DNA of 64,000 nucleotides, taken from Klebsiella phage KMI7. Positions 826 to 57,001 of this stretch are shown here, piece by piece (the first letter of the stretch is position 1; each line of letters begins with the position of its first letter). The DNA is taken from the sequence record MN101221.1, one strand, 5' to 3'. Made by a program: the position numbers and the translations under genes. The notes beneath the pieces are model-generated. The model did no database searches and was not told where the DNA came from. It saw nothing but the letters and a program-made list of their open reading frames with translations.

Positions 826-3162
<2,337 letters not shown>

Positions 3163-9482: not shown

Positions 9483-11051
9483 ATGTCTAAGAAAAACGAA
9501 TTGATGGAAAAATGGAACGATCTTCTGGAGTCTCAGGAAGGCTTACCGGATATCGCTACCAAATCCAAAAAACAACTGATTGCTGCCATTATGGAAGCAC
9601 AGGAAAAAGACGCAGAAGTTGATCCGGTTTACCGCGACGAGAAAATCGTTGAATCCTTCGGTGGTTTCCTGGCGGAAGCTGAAATTGCTGGTGACCACGG
9701 TTACGACGCAACCAAAATCGCTTCTGGTAACTCAAGCGGTGCTATCACCAACATCGGCCCTGCTGTAATCGGTATGGTTCGCCGTGCGATTCCTAACCTG
9801 ATCGCGTTCGATATCTGCGGTGTTCAGCCTATGACTGGCCCTACTGGACAGGTGTTCGCTCTCCGCGCAGTGTACGGTAAAGATCCGCTGGCTTCCGGTG
9901 CTAAAGAAGCATTCCATCCGATGTTCTCTCCGGATAGCATGTACTCCGGTCAGGGCGCGGCTCCGAGCAACGGCTTTACCGAACTGGCTTCCGGTACTGC
10001 GATTGCTGACGGCGCTATCGTGTTCCACGATTTCGTTGAAACTGGTCGTGTGTTCCTCCAGAATGTTTCTGGCTCTCCGGTTACTGTAACTGGTTCTACC
10101 GCCGATGCTCTGGATGCTGCTGTTATCGCCGAACAGGAAAAAGGTACTCTGGCTGAAATTTCTTACGGTATGGCTACCAGTGTAGCAGAACTGCAAGAAC
10201 AGTTCAACGGTTCTACTGGCAACCCGTGGAACGAAATGGGCTTCCGTATCGATAAGCAGGTTATCGAAGCACGTAGCCGCCAACTGAAAGCACAGTACTC
10301 TGTAGAACTGGCTCAGGATCTCCGCGCTGTTCACGGTATGGACGCTGACGCCGAACTGTCTGCTATTCTGGCAACCGAAATCATGCTGGAAATCAACCGC
10401 GAAATCGTTGACATGATCAACTATACCGCACAGGTTGGTAAAACTGGTTTCACTCAGACCGTTGGCTCTAAAGCTGGTGCGTTTGACTTCCAGGATCCGA
10501 TTGATGTTCGTGGCGCTCGTTGGGCTGGTGAAAGCTACAAAGCTCTGCTGATTCAGATCGACAAAGAAGCAAACGAAATCGCACGTCAAACTGGTCGTGG
10601 TGCTGGTAACTTCATCATCGCTTCCCGTAACGTGGTTTCCGCTCTGGCTCGTATCGATAGCGGTATCACTCCGGCAGGTCAAGGTCTCCAGAAGACTCTG
10701 AACGTTGACACCACTAAAGCAGTATTCGCTGGTGTTCTGGGTGGCGTGTATAAAGTATACATCGACCAGTATGCACGTGGTGATTACTTCACCGTGGGTT
10801 ACAAAGGCGATAACGAAATGGATGCTGGTATCTACTACGCTCCGTATGTTGCGCTGACCCCGCTGCGTGGTTCTGATCCGAAGAACTTCCAGCCAGTAAT
10901 GGGCTTCAAAACTCGTTACGGTGTAGGTATCAACCCGTTTGCGAACTCTCGCTCTCAGGCTCCGTCCGACCGTATCACTTCTGGTATGATTACCAAAGAA
11001 ATGTTCGGTAAAAACGCATACTTCCGCAAGGTTTATGTGAAAGGGCTGTAA
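9483..11051 (+). CDS. 23: major capsid protein gp23
   Basis: 522 aa (T4 gp23 is 521 aa); strongly biased codon usage typical of a highly expressed gene; collinear similarity to gp23. Confidence 0.95.
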   Translation: MSKKNELMEKWNDLLESQEGLPDIATKSKKQLIAAIMEAQEKDAEVDPVYRDEKIVESFGGFLAEAEIAGDHGYDATKIASGNSSGAITNIGPAVIGMVRRAIPNLIAFDICGVQPMTGPTGQVFALRAVYGKDPLASGAKEAFHPMFSPDSMYSGQGAAPSNGFTELASGTAIADGAIVFHDFVETGRVFLQNVSGSPVTVTGSTADALDAAVIAEQEKGTLAEISYGMATSVAELQEQFNGSTGNPWNEMGFRIDKQVIEARSRQLKAQYSVELAQDLRAVHGMDADAELSAILATEIMLEINREIVDMINYTAQVGKTGFTQTVGSKAGAFDFQDPIDVRGARWAGESYKALLIQIDKEANEIARQTGRGAGNFIIASRNVVSALARIDSGITPAGQGLQKTLNVDTTKAVFAGVLGGVYKVYIDQYARGDYFTVGYKGDNEMDAGIYYAPYVALTPLRGSDPKNFQPVMGFKTRYGVGINPFANSRSQAPSDRITSGMITKEMFGKNAYFRKVYVKGL

Positions 11052-11138
11052 TAGCCAACTTTTCCAAGAGGGAACCGCAAGGTTCCCTTTTTTATTACAT
11101 AAATAAAGAAAAGTTTGTCAATAACGCAGGAACATAAA

Positions 11139-12428
11139 ATGAGTGAAAAATTTTACACAATTAACAAGCTGGTGCGTCAGTCACAGCTACCGCCTGGCCT
11201 GTCTAAAAAGGTTCTTGATGAGGCAACCGGAACAGAAACAATTAACGTAGCTAATACCCGTCCGGATCTGGTATCTCTTACCCGTGCGGTAAACAACCTG
11301 ATCTACGGTGAACTTGTAGCGATTCAGGAAACTAATTTACCTACCGCAACTCTGTTCGGTGTGCGTTATCGTAACCCTAAAGGCGATATGACGTTTTCCA
11401 GCGCTGCTACCTATTCCGGTAAGTATGCAAGCCGCGATAATATTTCAAATGGTGCGGTTGGTACTGCCTACACCAAAGGCCAAGTTTTCAAACACCCGAC
11501 AAGTGATGTTGTATACGAAGTAACTGATAGCGTAACTCTCGCAGGTGCTGATATTGATGAAGCGATTATGGTCGCATTATTCAGCAATAAATTACGCCTG
11601 GCAAGCGAAGCCGCGCCAACAAGTCAGTATGAAACCAGCGAAGATATTAGTACAACTTCTTTCGAAATGGATCGTTGGAATATCAACGTTCGTTCCCGTA
11701 AATTCAAAACTGAAATGACCGTGGAACTTATGCAGGATCTGGAAGCAAACCAATTCAACGCAGAAAATGTGATTGAAGATGTTTTGGGTACTGTTGCCAG
11801 TGAAGAAGTAAACAAAGATATCATTCAGACTCTGATCAACGTATCAAATCGTTACAACGTTGATGGTGTGATCACAAACGGCATTTTCGATGCTACAACC
11901 GCATACACTGCAAAGGATGCTCCGGCTTTAGGTCGTTTCCTGTATCAATTAGTGTGTGAAATGGGGCAGGAAATGAATAGAACGACTTCATTTGAAGCTA
12001 CCTATGTCCTGGCATCTTCTCGCGTTGTAGGCGTTCTGGCTGCGTCTGGTTGGATGCATGAAACCGATGAAACCCACCCGTTAGCGACAGGGCGACTTAA
12101 AAACGGTTATTATGTCTATACTGACACCAATACACCGTTTGATTACCTGCTGACTGGTTGCAAGTATGATCTGGGTGAAATGGATCATGTTGGCTCTCTG
12201 TTCTATACGCCATACACAGAAGCTGATCAGGCAGGTTCGATCAAGATTTCTGTTGATCCTCAATCCTTACAGCCTAAAGTTGCTATTCTGATGCGCTACG
12301 GTTTATCGGTTAACCCATATACCACTGCTGCAAACGAAAGACTTGTGAAAGGTGATGACTGGGTAAACCTCTCAGGTAAATCTAAGATGAGTCAGATTGT
12401 GGGTATCAAACTTCCTAAACTGGGTTGA
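11139..12428 (+). CDS. 24: capsid vertex protein gp24
   Basis: track ORF 11115 (TTG) trimmed to ATG 11139 with AGGAACATAAA SD; gp23-like fold paralog (ETN.P.A.FG..Y.NP...FY.PYTE...VDP.SLQP...RY.LS.NPYT). Confidence 0.9.
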   Translation: MSEKFYTINKLVRQSQLPPGLSKKVLDEATGTETINVANTRPDLVSLTRAVNNLIYGELVAIQETNLPTATLFGVRYRNPKGDMTFSSAATYSGKYASRDNISNGAVGTAYTKGQVFKHPTSDVVYEVTDSVTLAGADIDEAIMVALFSNKLRLASEAAPTSQYETSEDISTTSFEMDRWNINVRSRKFKTEMTVELMQDLEANQFNAENVIEDVLGTVASEEVNKDIIQTLINVSNRYNVDGVITNGIFDATTAYTAKDAPALGRFLYQLVCEMGQEMNRTTSFEATYVLASSRVVGVLAASGWMHETDETHPLATGRLKNGYYVYTDTNTPFDYLLTGCKYDLGEMDHVGSLFYTPYTEADQAGSIKISVDPQSLQPKVAILMRYGLSVNPYTTAANERLVKGDDWVNLSGKSKMSQIVGIKLPKLG

Positions 12429-12737
12429 TAGTATAACCCAACGGGGATAATATTCAATAGGTGGAGTAGGGAAACTTACTCCATCTTTTAATAATAATTA
12501 TAATTAATATTAAATTAGATCTTGAATTTATAAATGATTTATGATAAAATTTATTAATTATAATTATTATAGATCAAATAATTTTTGAAATCAAGTAAAA
12601 ATAAATTTGATTTTATAAATTAGATCATGTATAATTATTCTTTTAATAATATAATATATTATATTAGATCAATTTAAATTTGACTACAAATTAATATAGT
12701 ATATTATAGATCAACTGGGTAAATTGGTGAGTATGTT
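12429..12737. promoter_or_regulatory. ORF-free AT-rich spacer with five TAGATC(A) repeats, TATAAAT motifs and a sigma70-like promoter upstream of uvsY
   Basis: no ORF; TAGATC at 12516, 12570, 12621, 12665, 12707; TTGAwTTTATAAAT twice (12529, 12614); TTGACT-16-TATTAT at 12680-12707. Confidence 0.5.
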
Positions 12738-13157
12738 ATGAGTTTGAAATTAGAAGATCTGCAAAATGAACTTGAAAAGGATATGCTGATAGATCCCCTC
12801 AAGTTGCAATCAGAATCAGCGGATATCCCTAAGATTTGGGCTAAATGGCTTCGTTACCATTCAAACGCGAAGAAAAAACTGATCCAACTTCATGCGAAAA
12901 AAGAAGCTGATGTTAAGGATCGCATGTTGTACTACACCGGAAGACATGACAAAGAAATGTGCGAAGTGGTGTATACTGGGACTACTGAAATCAAAATCGC
13001 GATCGCTGGGGATCCGAAGATTGTAGAAACCAACAAACTGATCCAGTATTATGACATGGTGGTAGATTTCACCAGTAAAGCACTGGATATCGTCAAAAAC
13101 AAAGGATACTCTATCAAAAACATGCTGGAGATCCGTAAATTAGAAAGTGGTGCATAA
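12738..13157 (+). CDS. uvsY: recombination mediator protein UvsY
   Basis: 139 aa; clear similarity to T4 UvsY (LEDLQ.EL.KD..ID..KLQ.E.A......W...HS..KK.L....A.K......L.YY.GR.D). Confidence 0.9.
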   Translation: MSLKLEDLQNELEKDMLIDPLKLQSESADIPKIWAKWLRYHSNAKKKLIQLHAKKEADVKDRMLYYTGRHDKEMCEVVYTGTTEIKIAIAGDPKIVETNKLIQYYDMVVDFTSKALDIVKNKGYSIKNMLEIRKLESGA

Positions 13158-13333
13158 TGTCTACTGAAAATGAAAAATGTGTAGTGTGCAAGTGTCCGGT
13201 TCCTTCTACTGGTTATGTGACTGAATCCGGGCGCGTGTGTAGCACTATCTGTGCTGACTACATCGCAGAAAAAACAAAAAGCGGCGAGATCAACGAATCC
13301 GATGATCTGAATGAAGTTCAAATGTTGCTGTAG
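13157..13333 (+). CDS. small Cys-rich protein (58 aa), uvsY.-1 position
   Basis: ATG overlaps uvsY stop (TAATG); CxxC...C..C arrangement suggests a zinc ribbon; below the 60-aa track cutoff. Confidence 0.4.
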   Translation: MSTENEKCVVCKCPVPSTGYVTESGRVCSTICADYIAEKTKSGEINESDDLNEVQMLL

Positions 13334-13343
13334 GAGAATCTTA

Positions 13344-13424
13344 TGATTGGATACGGTGAAGGAATTACAGATCGTGATGAACGTCCAGATCTGTTAGAAT
13401 CTGACGAACATCCTGATTTTTAGG
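13344..13424 (+). CDS. tiny acidic ORF (26 aa), uvsY.-2 position
   Basis: MIGYGEGITDRDERPDLLESDEHPDF; position matches the tiny uvsY-distal ORFs of T4; very uncertain. Confidence 0.2.
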
Positions 13425-13733
13425 ATAGGTAAAACTATGCCATAGGCATGACAAACCGATTATGCGTAATGAATGAGGCTTGTACGGGGTTCTTTGCCTG
13501 GATCCCATAGTTCCCCATTACGGAGGCAAAACGGGCGATGGAGGCAACAAAATCGCGTCCTAAATACATGTGTACCCGAAAGGGGCTTGATAAAAGAATG
13601 CTGGATGATAGGCGTACTCTTTTGCGCCGTCCGATGGAGTTTACCTTCGGCGGGGTGATTGATAATATACCTTCGATCAAGGGCATGTGAATAGAATAGC
13701 CAGAATAGTACAGCACTGGCGTTAAGCAAATGT

Positions 13734-13770
13734 ACAAAAGCCCCTTCCTTTCGGTTGGGGCTTCTTTTTA
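13734..13770. terminator. bidirectional rho-independent terminator between the uvsY operon and uvsW.1
   Basis: AAAAGCCCC-loop-GGGGCTTCTTTTT; A-run on one side and T-run on the other. Confidence 0.75.
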
Positions 13771-14001
13771 GAACTTTTCTTCTTCTCCGCTTTCGAGTTC
13801 GGCCTTTAATTCTTCGGCTCGACCTTTCAGCGCATCACGCATAGAAATATCATCTGATGGTGCAACTTCAACTTCTTTCACGCGATTTTTGTAATATTTT
13901 TCAAGCTCTTTAAGGCCGTCCATAGTACGGCAAGAGGCGACCTTGCTCATGAAATCATCAATAGCCGCCTCATAAAGTCGAAAATCGTTGAAACTCTTCA
14001 T
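13768..14001 (-). CDS. uvsW.1: UvsW.1-like small protein
   Basis: 77 aa acidic helical protein immediately downstream of uvsW, as for the 76-aa T4 UvsW.1. Confidence 0.8.
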   Translation of the reverse strand: MKSFNDFRLYEAAIDDFMSKVASCRTMDGLKELEKYYKNRVKEVEVAPSDDISMRDALKGRAEELKAELESGEEEKF

Positions 14002-14009
14002 TTTAACCT

Positions 14010-15509
14010 CTAAATTTCGATTTGTTTGATCACGTAGTCAAACTTTTCTTCATTGTAAATGCGTACTCGTTCGATTGCGTGTTTCATACCATAGTTTTTG
14101 TATGAATATTTATTTTTAGCATTTTTGGACTTTGCCAGCGTTGCTAAGTTATCAACCAAATCCCAAACAGTAGCAAGAGATTTAGAATCATGTTTACGCA
14201 GTACGCGCCCAATTGACTGTTTGACTATAACAGCAGATTTGCAAGGATGTCCGAAGATGATGTGATGCAGGTTCTTGACAGAAATACCTGTACTCAGTAC
14301 ACCAATAGAACCGATTACGATCAGCCCCTTCGTTGATTCCGCGATCCGTTTCATTTCGTTTCGCTCATCAATCCCCGTTTCCCCAGAAATGTATACAACG
14401 TTGTCATATACCTTTTTGAGTTGCTCATACAGCCATTTACCATGTTTGATTTGATTGAACATCACAAACACGTTTTCATCTTTTTCCCTTGCCAGTTTCA
14501 ACGCCAGCTTACAGATCCATGCGTTACGCCTGGTATGCGATGTTATATACTTGATTTCGCTTTGGTAATCAGCCCCCTTCATTTTCTTAATCTCATCCTC
14601 TTTATATCTCATGAAGATGGTATTAATTCGAAGGTTGGTAACTTGACCTTCCTGCATCAACCGATTTGTATCAACTGGCTTGAAGATTTGACCAAAAGCG
14701 CCAATGTATTGCATCATGTTTGCTTTGCCTTCTTTCAGAGAACCAGAAAGGCCAAACTTGAAAATACACTGATCCATTGTGTTGATGATCTTCTGTATGC
14801 TTTGTCCGGTTGATTTGTGGCATTCATCCACCATCAAACACATGAACTGCTGAAACCACTCAGGAGGCATTTTAACAGCCGATTGCCACGTAGACACGTA
14901 GATCAATGCATTACTGTTTTTAGCAGTTCCTGAACGTATTCCAAGCATTGCCTCGCGAGGTAAAAGGCGATAGTTGACAATATCACCGATCATCTGATCA
15001 ACAAGGGCGGTTGTTGGGACAATGATTAGTACTTTGCCTGTGTAATTTTCCAGACACCAACGAGATATCAACCCCTGAATAAGAGATTTACCCGCTGACG
15101 TTGGGAGGTTAAGCACAGCACGGCGGTTTTTAATCGCATGGAACACCGATTGTTTTTGATACCAATACGGATCAATCTGCTTGTTTCCGTCGTATACTGG
15201 GTGTTCTTCTAACCACTTGTCAAAATCTGGCTGGGTAATTTCTTCTGTTTCGTGGATCTTAGGATCCATCCAGATAGAATACCCGCGAGACTCCGCGAAT
15301 TTTGTTACAAGATAGGCTAAACCGTAGGGCAGTTTCCCGTTATAGTCCATCAAGTATATGTAGCCGTTCCATCCACCATATTTGTATTTTGCCTGGTACT
15401 GATAACCTGGCGGCTGGAAGCTGAAATAGTCGCGCAATTCATAGACTATGTTAGCCTCTGCCTGAATCTGCACATGACTAGTGTTAAGGAATTTGACTTC
15501 GATATCCAC
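14010..15509 (-). CDS. uvsW: UvsW DNA/RNA helicase (SF2, DExH)
   Basis: 499 aa; motifs LNLPTSAGKS (Walker A), MVDECHK (DExH), QSIGRVLRKH (motif VI); collinear with T4 UvsW incl. N-terminus MDI.V.F; apparent GTG start. Confidence 0.9.
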   Translation of the reverse strand: MDIEVKFLNTSHVQIQAEANIVYELRDYFSFQPPGYQYQAKYKYGGWNGYIYLMDYNGKLPYGLAYLVTKFAESRGYSIWMDPKIHETEEITQPDFDKWLEEHPVYDGNKQIDPYWYQKQSVFHAIKNRRAVLNLPTSAGKSLIQGLISRWCLENYTGKVLIIVPTTALVDQMIGDIVNYRLLPREAMLGIRSGTAKNSNALIYVSTWQSAVKMPPEWFQQFMCLMVDECHKSTGQSIQKIINTMDQCIFKFGLSGSLKEGKANMMQYIGAFGQIFKPVDTNRLMQEGQVTNLRINTIFMRYKEDEIKKMKGADYQSEIKYITSHTRRNAWICKLALKLAREKDENVFVMFNQIKHGKWLYEQLKKVYDNVVYISGETGIDERNEMKRIAESTKGLIVIGSIGVLSTGISVKNLHHIIFGHPCKSAVIVKQSIGRVLRKHDSKSLATVWDLVDNLATLAKSKNAKNKYSYKNYGMKHAIERVRIYNEEKFDYVIKQIEI

Positions 15510-15579
15510 TATGTGTATCCTATATACGGTTTATATGAATATTTATAGGCTAAATAATGATAAACATTGGAGAACTACA

Positions 15580-28075: not shown

Positions 28076-28364
28076 TATCCGCAAAAACGACAAAGGAACC
28101 GTGATTTTCTATGACAACATGCCCCTTGTAGCTCGCAAGGGGCTTTTTGCTAAAATCGCTGGGTATTCCTTTAAACTGGAAGAAGTCAACGACGAAACAC
28201 TAAAAGAGATCGTAAGAATTGCCTTACAGTTAAGAGGTAAGAAAGACGAACAAAGAGCTATTGACATGATCAATAAATTGGGGGAAACTCAATGCTTCAT
28301 AGTGAATCGTGGTTACAAGTACGATACCATTGCAAAATTTGAAAAAGGGCTTTGTGAATTATGA
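28062..28364 (+). CDS. hypothetical protein (100 aa)
   Basis: overlaps nadV end by 14 nt and dam start (ATGA). Confidence 0.4.
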   Translation: MPGFSIRKNDKGTVIFYDNMPLVARKGLFAKIAGYSFKLEEVNDETLKEIVRIALQLRGKKDEQRAIDMINKLGETQCFIVNRGYKYDTIAKFEKGLCEL

Positions 28365-29212
28365 GTTATTATGGTGTGATCCCATACACAGGAAACAAGC
28401 AAAAGCTACTTCCTGAACTGTTCAAATTATTTCCAGACAGAAACAGCTATATGCGATTCATCGACTGTTTTTGTGGTGGTTTGAGTGTGTCACTAAACGT
28501 CCCTAAACCCGTTCTAAGCAACGATTACGATCGGACGTTGATTGATATGTATAAGCGCCTTCAAATGCTTCCTGACCTCTCTCCGGTGCGAGAATTGATT
28601 AAACAACATGGGCTGGGTAAGAACGAGAAAGAAGCGTATCTCACATTTCGTGATGCATATAATAAGAACAAGGATCCGCTATGGCTCTATGTTCTGATCC
28701 TGCATTCGTTTAGTAATGTTAATCGAACCAACGATAAAGGCGATTTTAACGCCAATTTTGGTTGTAGAACGTTGAATGATTCTACCGTTAAACGGTTTGA
28801 ACACTTCAAAAACAATGTTCGTGGAATTGAATTCTCTAGCGCATCGTTTAAGGATCTTGATATCTGCTTGAATGATTTTGTGTACTGCGATCCGCCGTAC
28901 CTGATCACTGATGCAGTTTATAACAAATTCTGGAACGAAGAACGCGAGCATGAATTATATGATTTTCTCGATAATTTAAACTCTGATGGTATCAAGTTTG
29001 GTTTATCAAACGTGACACATCATGCAGGAAAGCAAAATGATATCCTGATCGAGTGGATGCAAAAATATAATGTGCATAACCTCGATAAAAAGTATCTGTT
29101 AGGCCAGCATACTGATTCTTACGAACAAAATAAAACGCAAGAAGTCTACGTGTGCAACTATCAGAAACGCGACGTAAATACATACCCTGAAACACTGGAT
29201 GACTTAATGTAA
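28361..29212 (+). CDS. dam: DNA adenine methyltransferase Dam (GATC)
   Basis: 283 aa; AYTGNKQ.LLPEL, FCGGLSVSLNV, catalytic DPPY; collinear with T4 Dam. Confidence 0.9.
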   Translation: MSYYGVIPYTGNKQKLLPELFKLFPDRNSYMRFIDCFCGGLSVSLNVPKPVLSNDYDRTLIDMYKRLQMLPDLSPVRELIKQHGLGKNEKEAYLTFRDAYNKNKDPLWLYVLILHSFSNVNRTNDKGDFNANFGCRTLNDSTVKRFEHFKNNVRGIEFSSASFKDLDICLNDFVYCDPPYLITDAVYNKFWNEEREHELYDFLDNLNSDGIKFGLSNVTHHAGKQNDILIEWMQKYNVHNLDKKYLLGQHTDSYEQNKTQEVYVCNYQKRDVNTYPETLDDLM

Positions 29213-30010: not shown

Positions 30011-32130
30011 AAGTAGAAAAACGCGACGGAACAATCGTCGATTTCGATAAAGAAAAAATTCGTAACGCAGTTTATAAAGCTGGCGGTACGATGACGGATG
30101 AAGACAGTGCGATTATGCTTGTGTTGCGTAGTCAGATCCGCAACGGTAAAGCAATGAAGATTTCACAAATTCAAGAACTTGTTGAAGAATCTTTGATGAA
30201 GACAAATCCGACTGTTGCCCGTGCATATATCGAATATCGTCATGATCGTGATATCTCCCGTGAACAAAACGGAAAATTATTCCGTGATATCAAGGGTTTG
30301 ATGACTCTTAGTAACAAAGAATTAACCAACGAAAACGCAAACAAAGATTCTCGCGTATTCCCGACTAAACGCGATCTTCTGGCTGGTATCGTTTCTAAAC
30401 ATATGGCGCGTAACCATATTCTACCGAAACATATTGTTGCGGCGCATGATTCCGGTGATATTCATTATCACGATCTGGATTACAGCCCGTTCACCCCATA
30501 CACTAACTGCTGTCTTGTTGACCTGAAAGGCATGTTAGAAAACGGGTTCCGGATGGGTAACGCTGATATCGAACCGCCAAAATCAATCGGTGTTGCTACT
30601 GCTCTTATGGCTCAGATCACCGCACAGATTGCTTCTCACCAGTACGGCGGGACAACCTTTGCAAACGTCGATCAGGTGCTGGCCCCTTACGTTGAAATGA
30701 CGTACAACAAACACTTTAAAGATGCTGTTTGGTACGGGGTTCCTAAATCAAAACAGTATGCGATGGAAAAAACAGAAAAGGATGTATTCGATGCGTTCCA
30801 GTCATACGAATATGAAGTAAACACCTTACATACTGCAAATGGACAGACGCCTTTTGTCACAATCACTTTTGGTATGGGTACTGGTTGGCGCGAACGCATG
30901 ATCCAGAAAGCAATTCTGAAAAACCGTATTCGTGGACTGGGTAAAAAGGGCATTACTCCCGTATTCCCAAAACTGGTTATGTTTATGGAAAAAGGGATTA
31001 ACCTTAATCCGGAAGACAGAAACTATGATATTAAGAAATTGGCCCTGGAATGTTCTTCAAAGCGTATGTATCCGGATATTATTAGCGCGGCTAATAACCG
31101 TCGTATTACTGGCTCTAGCATTCCTGTATCTCCTATGGGTTGTCGTAGTTTCCTTAGCGTGTGGAATGATGAGCACGGTAATGAAATTCTTGATGGACGT
31201 AATAACCTGGGCGTTGTGACAATCAACCTTCCTCGTATTGCGATTGAAGCCCAAACACAGGAAGATGAAGACGCGCATGATGCATTTTGGCGTATCCTTG
31301 ATGAACGTCTGGAACTGTGTTTTGAAGCCCTGATGACTCGTATTGATAGTCTCAGAGGTGTTAAAGCCAGTGTAGCCCCGATCCTTTATACAGAAGGTGC
31401 GTTTGGTGTAAGGTTGAAACCCGATGATGAAATATTGGAACTGTTCAAAAATGGGCGTAGTTCTATCAGTCTGGGATACATCGGATTGCATGAAACTCTG
31501 ATGCTTTTCGGATCTGGACAGCACCCATTCGACCGGATCGGTTCTCAGAACATGGGTAGACTGATTCTGGAATATCTACGCGCTGCGACCGAAGCATGGA
31601 AAAAGAAAACCGGATTTGGGTTTAGTCTGTATTCAACCCCTGCTGAATCTCTATGTCATCGTTTCTGCAAACTGGACTATGAGAAATTCGGAAGTATCAA
31701 AGGGATCACAGATAAAGGCTGGTACACTAACAGTTTTCATCTGGACGTTGACCGCAAGGTAACACCGTTCGAGAAAATCGACTATGAAGCCGATTATCAT
31801 TACATTGCAACTGCTGGACATATCAGCTATGTAGAATTCCCTGATATGAAAAACAACCTGGAAGCCCTTGAAAAAGTCTGGGATTATGCAATGGATAAAC
31901 TGGACTACTTCGGAACAAACCTTCCTGTTGATAAATGCTTTGAATGTGGTTCGGATGATGAATTTAAGCCAACAGAAGACGGTTTTCATTGTACCCATTG
32001 TGGGAACCACGATCCGGAAAAAATGAGCGTCACGCGCCGTACATGCGGTTATTTGGGTGCTCCTGCTGTCCGTGGGTTCAACGAAGGTAAGAACAAAGAA
32101 ATGATGCATCGCATTAAGCATCAAAATTAA
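30007..32130 (+). CDS. nrdD: anaerobic ribonucleoside-triphosphate reductase NrdD (class III), intron-less
   Basis: 707 aa; N-terminal ATP-cone, C-terminal zinc site CFECGSDDE...CTHCG and glycyl-radical motif RRTCGYLG; ATGA overlap with gene 49. Confidence 0.9.
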   Translation: MKVEKRDGTIVDFDKEKIRNAVYKAGGTMTDEDSAIMLVLRSQIRNGKAMKISQIQELVEESLMKTNPTVARAYIEYRHDRDISREQNGKLFRDIKGLMTLSNKELTNENANKDSRVFPTKRDLLAGIVSKHMARNHILPKHIVAAHDSGDIHYHDLDYSPFTPYTNCCLVDLKGMLENGFRMGNADIEPPKSIGVATALMAQITAQIASHQYGGTTFANVDQVLAPYVEMTYNKHFKDAVWYGVPKSKQYAMEKTEKDVFDAFQSYEYEVNTLHTANGQTPFVTITFGMGTGWRERMIQKAILKNRIRGLGKKGITPVFPKLVMFMEKGINLNPEDRNYDIKKLALECSSKRMYPDIISAANNRRITGSSIPVSPMGCRSFLSVWNDEHGNEILDGRNNLGVVTINLPRIAIEAQTQEDEDAHDAFWRILDERLELCFEALMTRIDSLRGVKASVAPILYTEGAFGVRLKPDDEILELFKNGRSSISLGYIGLHETLMLFGSGQHPFDRIGSQNMGRLILEYLRAATEAWKKKTGFGFSLYSTPAESLCHRFCKLDYEKFGSIKGITDKGWYTNSFHLDVDRKVTPFEKIDYEADYHYIATAGHISYVEFPDMKNNLEALEKVWDYAMDKLDYFGTNLPVDKCFECGSDDEFKPTEDGFHCTHCGNHDPEKMSVTRRTCGYLGAPAVRGFNEGKNKEMMHRIKHQN

Positions 32131-55714: not shown

Positions 55715-57001
55715 TTATTTCAACTTCTTAGAAAGTTCTTTTAAATCATTGAGATACTCAATTTTAGGGGTTGTTTCTTCCCAGTATTTCAACTGTTTGC
55801 GCAATTCTTCGGCTTCGTCTTCCAGCTTTTTGCTTTCGTCCGTGGTTAGATGGTAGATGTTCATAGCCACTAACATTTCGGCATGATTCTCGCAACCTAT
55901 CCACGTAGACACAAATTTAACCGCTTCGCTGCGACTAAGGCCACGCAGAGAATCAGGAGATTCTACCATTTGAGTAATAAACGCAACCTTTGCCAGTGCT
56001 TTATCTAACGCTTCCTTAGTTTCCTGGATACGCTTATTGATACGCTGTTGATATACATTCATACGAATATCAACGAAATCCTTTAGAAGCGTTTCAGGGC
56101 GTTCATATGAGTATAATTTACCCTCAAAGATAACGTTAATGTTTGGGTTTGAATTTTCAATCAACCCGAAATCTTTCAGGATCTTTTCGCGGGTTAACCC
56201 GTTGGCATACTCTCGCTTGAGCGTTACTTCATAACGAAAATCTTCTTTCGATAGATCCTTGTAGCTAACGATAACGCCTTTTTCTTCCAGCTTGTCAAGG
56301 ATTGCAATGTATTTCACACGGTCGTACTTCACTGGGATCTCGGTGATCACCAATTTGGTTTTACCTTGCAATTCATACGTGCCGTAAATTGTCCCGTCTG
56401 TGATTTCACCTTTAAAGTAAGGGTATTTCAGATCCAGTGTGAAATCTTTATCATTCAGATATGCAATGCACCCGTTAACAACCGATTTAGGATCATGAGG
56501 CGGAATGTTTGTTGCATATGCTTTTGCAATCCCGCTAAACCCGTTAACCAGTACCATCGGGATGATCGGGAGATAGTACGCTGGCGGTACATGTTCCGGA
56601 TCTTCATGAACTGGCGTTAAATCACCATCCATATAAATTGCTTTGAATATTGGCGATAGTTTACACTTGATGTAACGAGGTGCGCCAGGTTTCTTAACCA
56701 AACGGGAACCAAAGAACCCATCACGGTCGAATAACGGAATGTTATTGCACCAGTGCGCCGCCATAAGGGATAACGCTTCTTCTACAGAGGTTTCCCCGTG
56801 GTGATACCCATACATAGCAACACCGCCAGCGATAGAAGCTACTTTCTGAAATCCCGTTCCGCCCTGCATAGCAGAGTGAATAAAGAAACGGTGAACGGGT
56901 TTAAACCCGTCTACCAGGTGCGGGATCGCACGTGAATAAATCGTGTAAAGGGCAAACGTTAGCCCTTCCACCTGTACAACATCTTTAATACTTCTTTCCA
57001 T
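55715..57001 (-). CDS. 52: DNA topoisomerase II medium subunit gp52 (GyrA-like cleavage-religation domain)
   Basis: 428 aa; winged-helix FKPVHRRF-like start and active-site Tyr region MYGYHHGE; collinear with T4 gp52. Confidence 0.85.
   Translation of the reverse strand: MERSIKDVVQVEGLTFALYTIYSRAIPHLVDGFKPVHRFFIHSAMQGGTGFQKVASIAGGVAMYGYHHGETSVEEALSLMAAHWCNNIPLFDRDGFFGSRLVKKPGAPRYIKCKLSPIFKAIYMDGDLTPVHEDPEHVPPAYYLPIIPMVLVNGFSGIAKAYATNIPPHDPKSVVNGCIAYLNDKDFTLDLKYPYFKGEITDGTIYGTYELQGKTKLVITEIPVKYDRVKYIAILDKLEEKGVIVSYKDLSKEDFRYEVTLKREYANGLTREKILKDFGLIENSNPNINVIFEGKLYSYERPETLLKDFVDIRMNVYQQRINKRIQETKEALDKALAKVAFITQMVESPDSLRGLSRSEAVKFVSTWIGCENHAEMLVAMNIYHLTTDESKKLEDEAEELRKQLKYWEETTPKIEYLNDLKELSKKLK

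Follow-up and report, generated by a model that had tools for sequence, protein, structure and literature searches.

The gp24-uvsY spacer of a Slopekvirus, a probable composite control region in a family of three AT-rich islands

Klebsiella phage KMI7, of which a stretch of 64,000 nucleotides (hereafter, the window) was analysed, is a Slopekvirus of the KP15/Matisse type. In the window, a spacer of 309 bp (12429 to 12737) lies between the stop codon of the capsid vertex gene gp24 (plus strand, 11115 to 12428) and the ATG of the recombination mediator gene uvsY (plus strand, 12738 to 13157). The first of these genes matches the Pfam Gp23 family (E=1.7e-92) and is annotated as gp24 in KP15, Matisse, and RB43; its true start is likely the ATG at 11139, giving a protein of 429 aa as in KP15. 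The second matches Pfam PF11056 (E=2.1e-37), and its product shares 37% identity with UvsY from T4 (E=1e-30). The helicase gene uvsW is found on the minus strand (14010 to 15509; Pfam UvsW_N, E=1.3e-31), with a late box, TATAAATA, at 15547 on the same strand. In T4, UvsW is a helicase that unwinds R-loops (PMC3016281). The KP15 annotation also lists RNase H, gp59, and gp41. As originally predicted, the phage also encodes a Dam-like N6-adenine DNA methyltransferase of the D12 class (plus strand, 28361 to 29212; Pfam PF02086, E=1.9e-34), annotated as Dam in KP15. This enzyme is the presumed writer at GATC, its predicted specificity.

The spacer had been described as AT-rich and free of open reading frames, and both properties hold. 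Its AT-rich core extends from about 12491 to 12716, some 220 bp at 9-13% GC (0.105 over 12500 to 12699), and in a scan of 150-bp windows no other segment of the 64 kb falls below 24% GC. The same core holds the least stable 100-bp stretch of the window, with a nearest-neighbour energy z of 6.3 (runner-up, 3.4). No ORF of at least 20 aa is present within 12429 to 12737, which rules out a hidden small ORF. A non-coding RNA was dropped as a candidate because an Rfam search with permissive E-values over 12300 to 13900 returned one sub-threshold chance match only, inside uvsY. The related claim that intergenic regions are otherwise tiny is only roughly correct, as shown by an ORF-poor gap of 434 bp at 13334 to 13767, downstream of the spacer. 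Several assemblies break inside the spacer, for which a drop in read coverage at about 10% GC is the better explanation; in practical terms, islands of this composition interrupt the short-read assembly of Klebsiella phages used in therapy.

Part of the spacer has the ordinary make-up of a terminator followed by a promoter. The late capsid operon upstream ends in an intrinsic terminator on the plus strand (12459 to 12489), where the stem formed by 12459-12470 and 12475-12486 closes a GAAA loop and is followed by a T run. The RNA fold has an energy of -20.8 kcal/mol (z=-3.8), and the element, which is annotated in Matisse, Miro, and KP15, is invariant in 15 isolates except for its tail. At the other end, the uvsY ribosome-binding site GGTGAG (plus strand, 12726 to 12731) corresponds in place to those annotated in Matisse and Miro, and is preceded by the putative uvsY-proximal promoter P5, TTGACT-16-TATTAT (plus strand, 12680 to 12707; 10/12 consensus matches), present as the original prediction had it. 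P5 matches in position the TTGACT-17-TATAAT of RB43-type phages. The length, composition, and GATC content of the spacer are far beyond what terminator and promoter functions need.

Three further sigma70-like candidates are found in the AT-rich core; these and P5 are consensus matches only, and AT-rich DNA gives promoter-like hexamers by chance. P1 (plus strand, 12522 to 12550) reads TTGAAT-17-TAAAAT with 9/12 matches, while P2 (minus strand, 12566 to 12594, pointing to gp24) and P3 (plus strand, 12607 to 12635) both read TTGATT-17-TATAAT with 10/12. Downstream of these three candidates follow 70-155 bp of roughly 9% GC DNA, the longest such tract, about 155 bp, being that of P1. The motif TTGAwTTTATAAAT, noticed before as a duplication, is common to P1 and P3 and is present as TTGAATTTATAAAT at 12522 and TTGATTTTATAAAT at 12607. 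The AAATCAA/TTGATTT inverted repeat is also there (12588-12594 and 12606-12612), but it is better read as the -35 boxes of P2 and P3, which form a back-to-back divergent pair of putative promoters. Both TATAAAT late-promoter-like boxes reported earlier could be located on the plus strand. The first, TATAAATG (12529 to 12536), lies between the hexamers of P1 and is an imperfect match to the late-gene consensus of the window, TATAAATA; the second, TATAAATT (12614 to 12621), is a candidate late box for uvsY, and the same variant is found upstream of a late gene at 3158.

Several known control elements were sought as parts of this region. A MotA-dependent middle promoter was dropped: neither strand has a TGCTT (the MotA box) from 11748 to 13077, and tblastn searches with T4 MotA and AsiA against KP15 and the window gave nothing (E>2). 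MotA is also absent from RB43 (PMC1524935). DnaA boxes (TTATNCACA, up to one mismatch), oriC 13-mers (GATCTNTTNTTTT, up to two mismatches), and the IHF consensus were all without a match in the spacer.

The five TAGATC copies of the original prediction were recovered on the plus strand, at 12516, 12570, 12621, 12665, and 12707, with spacings of 54, 51, 44, and 42 bp; the first reads TAGATCT and the other four TAGATCA. Site 1 (12516 to 12522) abuts the -35 box of P1, site 2 (12570 to 12576) lies directly upstream of the -10 box of P2 (TGATCTATAAT), and site 3 (12621 to 12627) falls between the hexamers of P3, followed by site 4 (12665 to 12671) and by site 5 (12707 to 12713) at the predicted start region of P5. 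The longest stretch shared among the copies is the 13 nt of TATTATAGATCAA, in copies 2 and 5; otherwise only 6-8 nt are shared. A tandem duplication of a 50-bp unit is unconvincing, as units beyond the motif are 71-82% alike over 22-41 nt in a two-letter alphabet.

The cluster is local, since TAGATC occurs in the whole window at chance level (25 seen, 26.5 expected). In the 245-bp core of KP15, 5 GATC are present and 0.18 expected, and 0 of 20,000 shuffles reached that number. All five copies have a TA 5' flank, for which the TA dinucleotide frequency of the core (0.20) gives a naive p of about 3e-4. The claim that GATC sites are concentrated here therefore stands against local expectation, but not in absolute density, which is ordinary for a genome where other 200-bp windows hold 5-7 GATC; only when set against the local 10% GC does the cluster stand out. 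A genome-wide GATC excess was discarded because trinucleotide usage accounts for the count (389 observed, 395 expected), and outside the islands described below this count is thus not evidence of selection.

The comparison with related phages that had been proposed as a check gave a mixed outcome among 15 isolates: the cluster is present in them, but single sites are lost and the sites are no better conserved than their AT background. Sites 1 to 4 are each missing in one or two isolates. Site 1 is kept in 14/15 (TAAATCT in CPRSA), site 2 in 13/15 (TAGACCA in RCIP0021, deleted in Roth23), site 3 in 13/15 (TATATCA in Matisse, TAGATTA in RCIP0021), and site 4 in 14/15; site 5 is the only invariant one (15/15). 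Roth23 is a viable isolate in which a deletion of 36 bp takes out both P2 and site 2. An apparent natural loss of the whole spacer, in KP13MC5-1, was set aside, because in that record the gp24 stop is joined to a remote region of the genome and the assembly may be wrong. The spacing, which had been called regular, is fairly even in this phage, but the distance from site 3 to site 4 is 34, 39, or 44 bp depending on the isolate. With single sites lost and the spacing variable, no GATC site is essential. With the Roth23 deletion set aside, about 4-5 of 20 GATC columns vary, compared with 26 of 206 other core columns, so that no purifying selection on individual GATC sites is seen among these 15 isolates, whose within-genus divergence is too low for a strong test. 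Relatives more distant than the genus have an unrelated module, that of RB43-type phages, in place of the GATC island; the uvsY promoters of RB43-type phages, L014/L015, and JC221 also have one GATC, at other positions.

As the chief new result, the spacer between gp24 and uvsY proved not to be unique, being one of three related islands in the genome. In KP15, exactly three segments fall below 20% GC: rnh|gp55 (region A), gp3|ORF152 (region B), and gp24|uvsY (region C). They are 250-300 bp long and enriched 17-29 fold in GATC (seen/expected: A 9/0.31, B 10/0.58, C 5/0.18), and for each of them 0 of 20,000 shuffles reached the observed count. Nowhere else in the KP15 genome are at least three TAGATC found within 250 bp. 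The islands share the GC-bearing modules TGATCTATAAT, TTTAGATCTGATCT, and GATCTTGAATT, and hold 5/6 genomic copies of GATCTATAAT, a motif with 3 copies in the window against 0.2 expected. Individual candidate promoters also recur: the P2 architecture, TTGAnn-N13-GATC-TATAAT, is found again in regions A and B, and region B holds both a colinear paralogue of P1, TTGAATTCATAAATTTTATGATCTATAAT, and the context of site 1, as TAGATCT(GATC)TTGAATT. Sigma70-like matches are dense on both strands of all three islands, with GATC repeatedly within or beside a -35 (TTGATC) or -10 (GATCTATAAT) hexamer. Regions A and B are also present in phage 05F, which is the window's nearest relative.

The members of this family differ in GATC arrangement and conservation. 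The densest GATC are those of region A (9 in 142 bp) and region B (8 in 178 bp), where flanks and orientations are mixed and the irregular gaps range from 5 to 65 bp, many of them being of 5-14 bp. In 111/113 records the identity of region A is 99% or higher, and region C is the least conserved and GATC-poorest member. Regions A and B are located at the two minima of the cumulative GC skew, which are transcription strand switches and at which the skew is confounded with gene orientation. As the ordinary early promoters of the phage are GC-rich stem-loop cassettes resembling the PeSL elements of related phages, the AT islands form a class separate from them. The spacer is, in summary, a probable composite control region belonging to a family of three.

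The sister genus Pseudotevenvirus, represented by RB43, also has a three-copy module at these junctions (rnh|55, gp3|ORF200, and gp24|uvsY). It consists of four iteron-like GARCGAAGYGA 11-mers around a covarying hairpin stem of about 10 bp, whose AT-rich loop, TTATATTTTATATATAGAGAAAA, is invariant. The module has about 31% GC and only 1-2 GATC, and each copy lies just upstream of the early promoter of the downstream gene, TTGACT-N17-TATAAT. Modules and islands thus share the three junctions, an AT-rich centre, and a following promoter of the downstream gene, but are unrelated in sequence, with iterons, a hairpin, and few GATC on one side only. Unrelated modules at the same junctions point to a cis-acting element conserved in position and replaceable in sequence. 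No published description of the RB43-type module was found in the papers searched, and a literature search on Slopekvirus origins, transcriptomes, and methylomes retrieved nothing relevant.

The best reading, held with a probability of roughly 0.4, is that the promoter region of uvsY doubles as an unwinding origin activated by transcription, similar to oriF of T4, with Dam sites as modulators. Host RNA polymerase would fire the promoters of the spacer early, and transcription into or away from the unstable AT tract would open the DNA, with the divergent P2/P3 pair adding negative supercoiling. The transcript would then act as an R-loop primer, as at T4 oriF. Given that the phage has no MotA, ordinary early promoters would take the job of the MotA promoter; along with the late boxes, they would also express uvsY. 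The hybrids formed in such DNA would be weak, as is general for those rich in rU:dA, and a stable R-loop in 90% AT DNA is thus not assured.

Under this promoter-plus-origin reading, the GATC motifs at or beside the -35 and -10 boxes would be targets of the phage Dam. The infecting genome would be fully methylated and would become hemimethylated after the first replication; the methylation state could tune promoter firing, unwinding, or SeqA binding, helping to limit origin use to the early phase, and UvsW, expressed from the late promoter of a gene 1.3 kb away, would subsequently remove the R-loops. As no single site is required, the GATC sites would act redundantly. The earlier proposal of an origin or methylation-sensitive region, rather than a simple promoter, gains from the three-island family and its distinctness from PeSL promoters, from the position at the 5' end of uvsY, from the GC-skew minima at A and B, and from the sister module; it is weakened by the missing MotA promoter, by an AT tract located upstream of uvsY, by the GATC losses, and by a spacing poorly suited to SeqA pairs.

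Almost as likely as promoter plus origin is a role in transcription alone. The AT islands would in that case be special promoter hubs for uvsY, gp55, and ORF152, built from UP-element or curved AT DNA with stacked early and late promoters, standing in for the missing middle mode and having no role in replication initiation; GATC methylation may then switch promoters between parental and new DNA. The absence of MotA and AsiA agrees with this, as T4 uvsY and 55 depend on MotA middle promoters, and so do the dense promoter matches with their adjoining GATC, the late-type boxes of the spacer, and the placement of each RB43-type module copy just upstream of an early promoter. The invariant site 5 at the uvsY-proximal promoter fits too, one GATC being kept also in RB43-type phages, JC221, and L014/L015. 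What transcription alone leaves unexplained, however, are 220-300 bp of about 10% GC, when the other early promoters are compact GC-rich cassettes, and a minus-strand promoter directed into the end of gp24. Moreover, promoter and origin roles coincide at T4 uvsY, so that transcriptional control does not exclude an origin.

It is clearly unlikely that TAGATCA is an iteron for a sequence-specific phage or host protein (an initiator, a regulator, or a nucleoid protein) with a GATC core incidental to Dam. Five copies on the same strand, fairly evenly spaced at 42-54 bp, all with the TA flank and four with a 3' A, speak for an iteron, as do the evenly spaced direct repeats of T4 oriE (PMC3016281) and the 11-mers of the sister genus at the same junctions. 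The shared 6-8 nt are nevertheless short for an iteron, as origins or operators of this type have three or more direct repeats of about 12-22 bp, the spacing between sites 3 and 4 shifts by 5 or 10 bp among isolates, single sites are lost, and the common denominator of the islands is GATC rather than TAGATCA. Neither was a candidate binding protein found: ORF152 (KP15_152/RB43ORF200), encoded beside region B, has no Pfam match and belongs only to a PHROG family of unknown function.

Still less probable is a role mainly as a sequestration site for host SeqA. Once the DNA has replicated for the first time, SeqA would bind the hemimethylated GATC clusters and shut the region down, much as it does oriC and the dnaA promoter. 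The GATC densities of regions A and B are in the range of oriC, with many short gaps, the phage encodes a Dam-like enzyme, and SeqA binds hemimethylated phage DNA (PMC12707154). However, the GATC pairs that SeqA prefers share one face of the helix and lie close together (spacings assayed, 5-34 bp; PMC2691817), and those of the spacer are 42-54 bp apart, in a phase that is not conserved. An excess of phage Dam would, in addition, shorten the hemimethylated period.

A methylation-gated packaging or cleavage site is hardly credible: packaging in T4-type phages is by headful, a single pac site does not agree with three copies in each genome, and the assembly breaks inside the spacer have the better explanation given above. 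The pac site of phage P1, where methylation is needed, is made of clustered Dam hexamers (PMC12707154), but these read TGATCA/G and the motif here is TAGATC(A/T). Neutral AT-rich filler with slippage repeats is equally hard to credit, being contradicted by the GATC statistics, by the three-member family, and by region A being very highly conserved.

Among T4-type phages, replication origins have been defined only in T4 (PMC3016281), and neither the role of the oriE repeats (PMC3016281) nor that of the phage Dam enzyme (PMC12707154) is clear. The source phage provides three short, recognizable, and related candidate elements per genome, and Pseudotevenvirus adds, at these same junctions, another three-copy module of unrelated sequence. 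With both in hand, it becomes testable whether origins can be conserved in position yet replaceable in sequence, whether early promoters take the place of MotA promoters, and whether Dam methylation gates the use of origins or promoters. A wider proposal, rather unlikely at present, is that Slopekvirus has three Dam-gated origins, each made of an AT island, early sigma70 promoters, and a GATC cluster, in which the methylation state would tell infecting from replicated genomes and so set the moment at which origin-dependent replication gives way to recombination-dependent replication. Such origins would have replaced the iteron-plus-hairpin origin module of Pseudotevenvirus at all three junctions at once. 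If true, they would be the first origins to be defined beyond T4, would exemplify a turnover of origins in concert, and would give the Dam of T4-type phages a physiological function.

Among known systems, oriC of Escherichia coli and oriR of phage P1 are AT-rich unwinding regions with tightly clustered Dam sites under Dam/SeqA control. The spacer shares with them a strong enrichment of GATC in the most AT-rich and most easily melted DNA, with Dam available, and differs in having neither DnaA boxes, nor 13-mers, nor an IHF site, and in the wider separation of its GATC (42-54 bp).

PeSL elements are repeated intergenic modules with a sigma70-type promoter, located at junctions that differ from the T4 gene order (PMC4122927, PMC2839356). 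The islands are likewise repeated intergenic regulatory modules with sigma70-type promoters where gene order departs from T4. PeSL cassettes, however, are compact, GC-stemmed, and numerous, in contrast to the longer islands, which number three, carry GATC clusters, and have no stem-loop adjacent to a promoter. In the spacer, the sole GC stem-loop (12459-12486) precedes the proximal promoter by about 190 bp, unlike in a PeSL, where a GC-rich stem-loop directly adjoins or overlaps a sigma70-type early promoter and the Shine-Dalgarno sequence and start codon come next, and the true PeSL-like cassettes of the genus look different from it.

In T4, oriE combines an early promoter with evenly spaced direct repeats of 12 nt and unclear role; it lies, like oriF and oriG, at a transcription strand switch, and the T4 origins have no common motif (PMC3016281). 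An early rather than a MotA promoter, evenly spaced direct repeats, and a switch in transcription direction are features in common with the islands, but the oriE repeats are inside gene 5, whereas those described here are intergenic, share only 6-8 nt, and contain GATC. A search for homologues of T4 RepEA and RepEB gave nothing beyond a weak antisense match (E=1e-4) within gene 5, which probably results from the conservation of that gene. The correspondences of regions A and B to T4 origins are loose, because oriG is inside gene 34, 2.2 kb from rnh, and oriE inside gene 5; only region C matches the position of a T4 origin closely.

Both oriF and oriG consist of a promoter and an AT-rich unwinding element (PMC3016281). 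The T4 record puts oriF at 115321, where the first codons of uvsY lie, with the uvsY transcript as its primer. The original prediction had placed the spacer in the neighbourhood of oriF, which is right as regards the 5' end of uvsY but not as regards the promoter type or the placement of the unwinding element. The T4 promoter is a MotA-dependent middle promoter, while here MotA box, MotA, and AsiA are all missing; the T4 unwinding element is downstream of the promoter, in the leader and coding start of uvsY, while here the tract is upstream of the gene, is much longer, and has a far stronger AT bias (some 220 bp at 9-13% GC). The spacer further differs in its several putative promoters on both strands, in its GATC cluster, as the uvsY promoter and leader region of T4 has no GATC, and in its three paralogous copies per genome, given that the T4 origins share no motif. 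With oriF and oriG it has in common the location on the 5' side of uvsY, where it abuts the ATG and the uvsY transcript is a potential primer, the putative promoters transcribing through AT-rich, easily unwound DNA, and a phage that encodes both RNase H and a UvsW under a late promoter.

The region from 11900 to 13400 of the window is 99% identical to Klebsiella phages KM2, 05F, KP5, Matisse and KP15 of the genus Slopekvirus, which are T4-type myoviruses. The spacer at 12429-12737 is directly preceded by gp24 (Pfam Gp23 family) and directly followed by uvsY (Pfam UvsY, E=2e-37; 37% identity to T4 UvsY), then by uvsY.-2 (DUF2685) and, on the opposite strand, by uvsW.1 and uvsW. It holds no ORF of at least 20 aa and matches no Rfam family, and its core, with 9-13% GC, is alone in the window in falling below 24% GC and has by far the lowest duplex stability (z=6.3). 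The original prediction, an origin or methylation-sensitive regulatory region rather than a simple promoter, had described an ORF-free, AT-rich spacer in a phage encoding its own Dam; all the sequence features it listed are found where it placed them, and a Dam-like methyltransferase gene lies at 28361-29212. Nearby, the 434-bp ORF-poor gap between uvsY.-2 and the convergent uvsW.1 (13334-13767, ~45% GC) has no Rfam match, and its equivalent in relatives contains only an annotated terminator and tiny, inconsistent ORFs. The gp23/gp24 junction (11052-11138) is free of the SegD-type GIY-YIG homing endonuclease gene (636-639 bp) that KP15 and Matisse carry between these genes.

The spacer belongs to a family. 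A scan of the complete KP15 genome (GU295964.1) in 150-bp windows returned exactly three segments below 20% GC: region A (31823-32103), between the divergent rnh and gp55; region B (101844-102128), between the divergent gp3 and ORF152; and region C (136314-136634), between gp24 and uvsY, which is the spacer itself. Only there does KP15 hold at least three TAGATC copies within 250 bp, and GATC is enriched in each (observed/expected 9/0.31 in A, 10/0.58 in B and 5/0.18 in C). The three regions also have GC-bearing modules in common: TGATCTATAAT occurs once in A, twice in B and twice, inverted, in C; TTTAGATCTGATCT is common to A and B, and GATCTTGAATT to B and C; five of the six genomic copies of the decamer GATCTATAAT fall within them (three copies in the window, against 0.2 expected); and the architecture TTGAnn-N13-GATC-TATAAT recurs four times. 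Regions A and B, outside the window (KP15 31782-32085 and 101800-102168, or L018:31782-32085 and L020:1800-2168), are also present in phage 05F (L045:2333-2636 and L046:2859-3227), which is 99% identical to the window, and region A is the same in KP15 and 05F at 304 of 304 positions. Among 113 records, at least 99% identity is reached by region A in 111, by B in 80 and by C in only 3, so the spacer is the least conserved member of the family; it is also the poorest in GATC.

Several assemblies are broken or rearranged at these islands (LC768470.1, LC768493.1/LC768494.1, OP617746.1). Those of phiKp_9 and phiKp_23 come in pieces of ~141 kb and ~35 kb, which matches how far region B lies from region C; an IMG/VR contig (L009:1-40) has its start within the spacer, its first 38 nt being unrelated sequence that meets the spacer at the fourth GATC; and in KP13MC5-1 (OP617746.1; L031:2830-3010) the gp24 stop is joined to a region at 18.2 kb in KP15, with no uvsY match beside gp24. 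The likely cause is coverage dropout or misassembly in DNA of ~10% GC.

There is good support for placing both the terminator of gp24 and the promoters of uvsY in the spacer. The terminator of the late capsid operon, a hairpin with a T run annotated in relatives, lies at 12459-12489, and a consensus scan predicts three promoters directed towards uvsY on the + strand, P1 (12522-12550, TTGAAT-17-TAAAAT), P3 (12607-12635, TTGATT-17-TATAAT) and P5 (12680-12707, TTGACT-16-TATTAT, the one already proposed before uvsY), and one on the - strand, P2 (12594 down to 12566, TTGATT-17-TATAAT). The duplicated TTGAwTTTATAAAT consists, in both copies, of a -35 box (that of P1 and that of P3) with a late-type TATAAAT box behind it; the AAATCAA/TTGATTT inverted repeat exists, but amounts to the -35 boxes of P2 and P3, which stand back to back. 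The late-promoter consensus within the window is TATAAATA, and TATAAATT stands ahead of a late gene at 3158. A TATAAATA box also lies just upstream of uvsW (15540-15547, - strand), in agreement with T4, where UvsW is expressed late. The usual early promoters of the genus are compact PeSL-type cassettes built around a GC-rich stem-loop (PMC4122927), and the AT islands form a class apart from them. The KP15 features annotated as 'putative middle promoter' (L018-L021; for example, record positions 10386-10425, 55838-55875 and 154835-154873) are GC-rich stem-loops enclosing a TTGAC -35 followed by a TATATT-type -10, and are PeSL-like early promoter-terminator cassettes.

The origins oriF and oriG of T4 combine a MotA-dependent promoter with an AT-rich unwinding element and work via an R-loop, oriE has an early promoter and evenly spaced repeats, and each of the three is at a point where transcription changes strand; the R-loops are removed by UvsW, a late product (PMC3016281). 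In the T4 record, oriF lies within the first codons of uvsY, whose transcript is the primer, and region C is alike in position, as predicted; regions A and B correspond only loosely to oriG, which is in gene 34 at 2.2 kb from rnh, and to oriE, which is in gene 5. The two minima of the cumulative GC skew coincide with regions A and B, where gene orientation also switches. T4 RepEA has a weak tblastn match (E=1e-4; KP15 106083-106220, - strand; L020:6083-6220) antisense within gene 5, arranged as in T4, which may reflect nothing more than gene 5 being conserved on the other strand. In the most probable reading, at roughly 0.4, the AT island of the spacer may also act as an oriF-like origin, a region unwound through transcription that would use early promoters and be modulated by Dam methylation. 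Nearly as likely, though behind it, is a purely transcriptional role, in place of the absent middle mode, at uvsY, gp55 and ORF152: the spacer has no MotA box, tblastn detects no homologue of the MotA or AsiA genes in the KP15 genome, and RB43 also lacks both (PMC1524935). The two are not exclusive, since both roles coincide in T4.

The methylation component of the origin reading concerns the five TAGATC copies at 12516, 12570, 12621, 12665 and 12707 (sites 1-5), all on the + strand, four of them TAGATCA and one TAGATCT. The cluster is local, because TAGATC is at chance level in the whole window (25 observed, 26.5 expected). The predicted concentration of GATC holds relative to the composition of the core, where none of 20,000 shuffles reaches five, but the absolute density is ordinary for the genome, and the window total fits trinucleotide expectation (389 against 395). 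CTAG, by the same measure, is strongly depleted in the window (30 against 93, ratio 0.32) and AGCT moderately (0.63). Nearly half of the core cytosines (5/11) belong to GATC sites, and the remaining G and C bases lie mostly within TTGA -35 boxes. Site 1 is upstream of a -35 box, site 2 adjoins the P2 -10 box, site 5 falls in the region where P5 transcription would start, and sites 3 and 4 are within spacers; given these differing positions, TAGATC is not a fixed promoter element. The regular spacing is seen in the window (54, 51, 44 and 42 bp), but varies among isolates, sites 3 and 4 being 34, 39 or 44 bp apart. Among 15 isolates site 5 is invariant, each of sites 1-4 is missing from one or two (losses occur in Matisse, RCIP0021, CPRSA and Roth23, the last through a 36-bp deletion that also takes out P2), and the GATC columns are no more conserved than other core columns. 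Since single sites are lost and spacing varies, neither any one site nor strict helical phasing is needed. Within this spacer, both a protein array that is cooperative and phase-dependent and classical SeqA pair binding (for its requirement, see PMC2691817) are thereby made less likely. TAGATCA as an iteron for some protein is improbable, and sequestration by SeqA as the main function is more doubtful still. A role as redundant Dam targets is plausible.

The order gp24-spacer-uvsY is retained in Pseudotevenvirus RB43, RB16, Miller, GAP161 and GuL6, in Yersinia phage JC221 and in three divergent metagenomic contigs whose uvsY is as little as 64% identical. In these the position is kept but not the sequence: the RB43-type spacer, of 240-280 bp, is unrelated to that of Slopekvirus. 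It carries GARCGAAGYGA four times, in two direct and two inverted copies, flanking a stem of ~10 bp with compensatory substitutions in 7/10 pairs and an invariant AT-rich loop, TTATATTTTATATATAGAGAAAA; after these comes the uvsY promoter, TTGACT-17-TATAAT. RB16 and Lw1 have the two repeats on the right in exchanged positions, an indication that GARCGAAGYGA marks protein-binding sites rather than one long hairpin. This module, also seen in L003-L006, L010-L017 and L041-L044, has three copies per genome; those of RB43 (L002:1855-2093, L022:6497-6817 and L023:7623-7904) occupy exactly the junctions of the Slopekvirus AT islands, namely rnh|55, gp3|ORF200 and gp24|uvsY. The three positions are thus shared by two sister genera whose repeated cis elements differ, as would be expected if a lineage-specific factor or process acts on these sites, and not if they are filler DNA. 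A pac-like site or neutral filler is very improbable.

No description of the three AT islands or of the three-copy RB43-type module was found in the literature searched. Promoter and origin regions that are AT-rich and contain Dam sites are themselves known, and the element, with its candidate function, is a variant of them.
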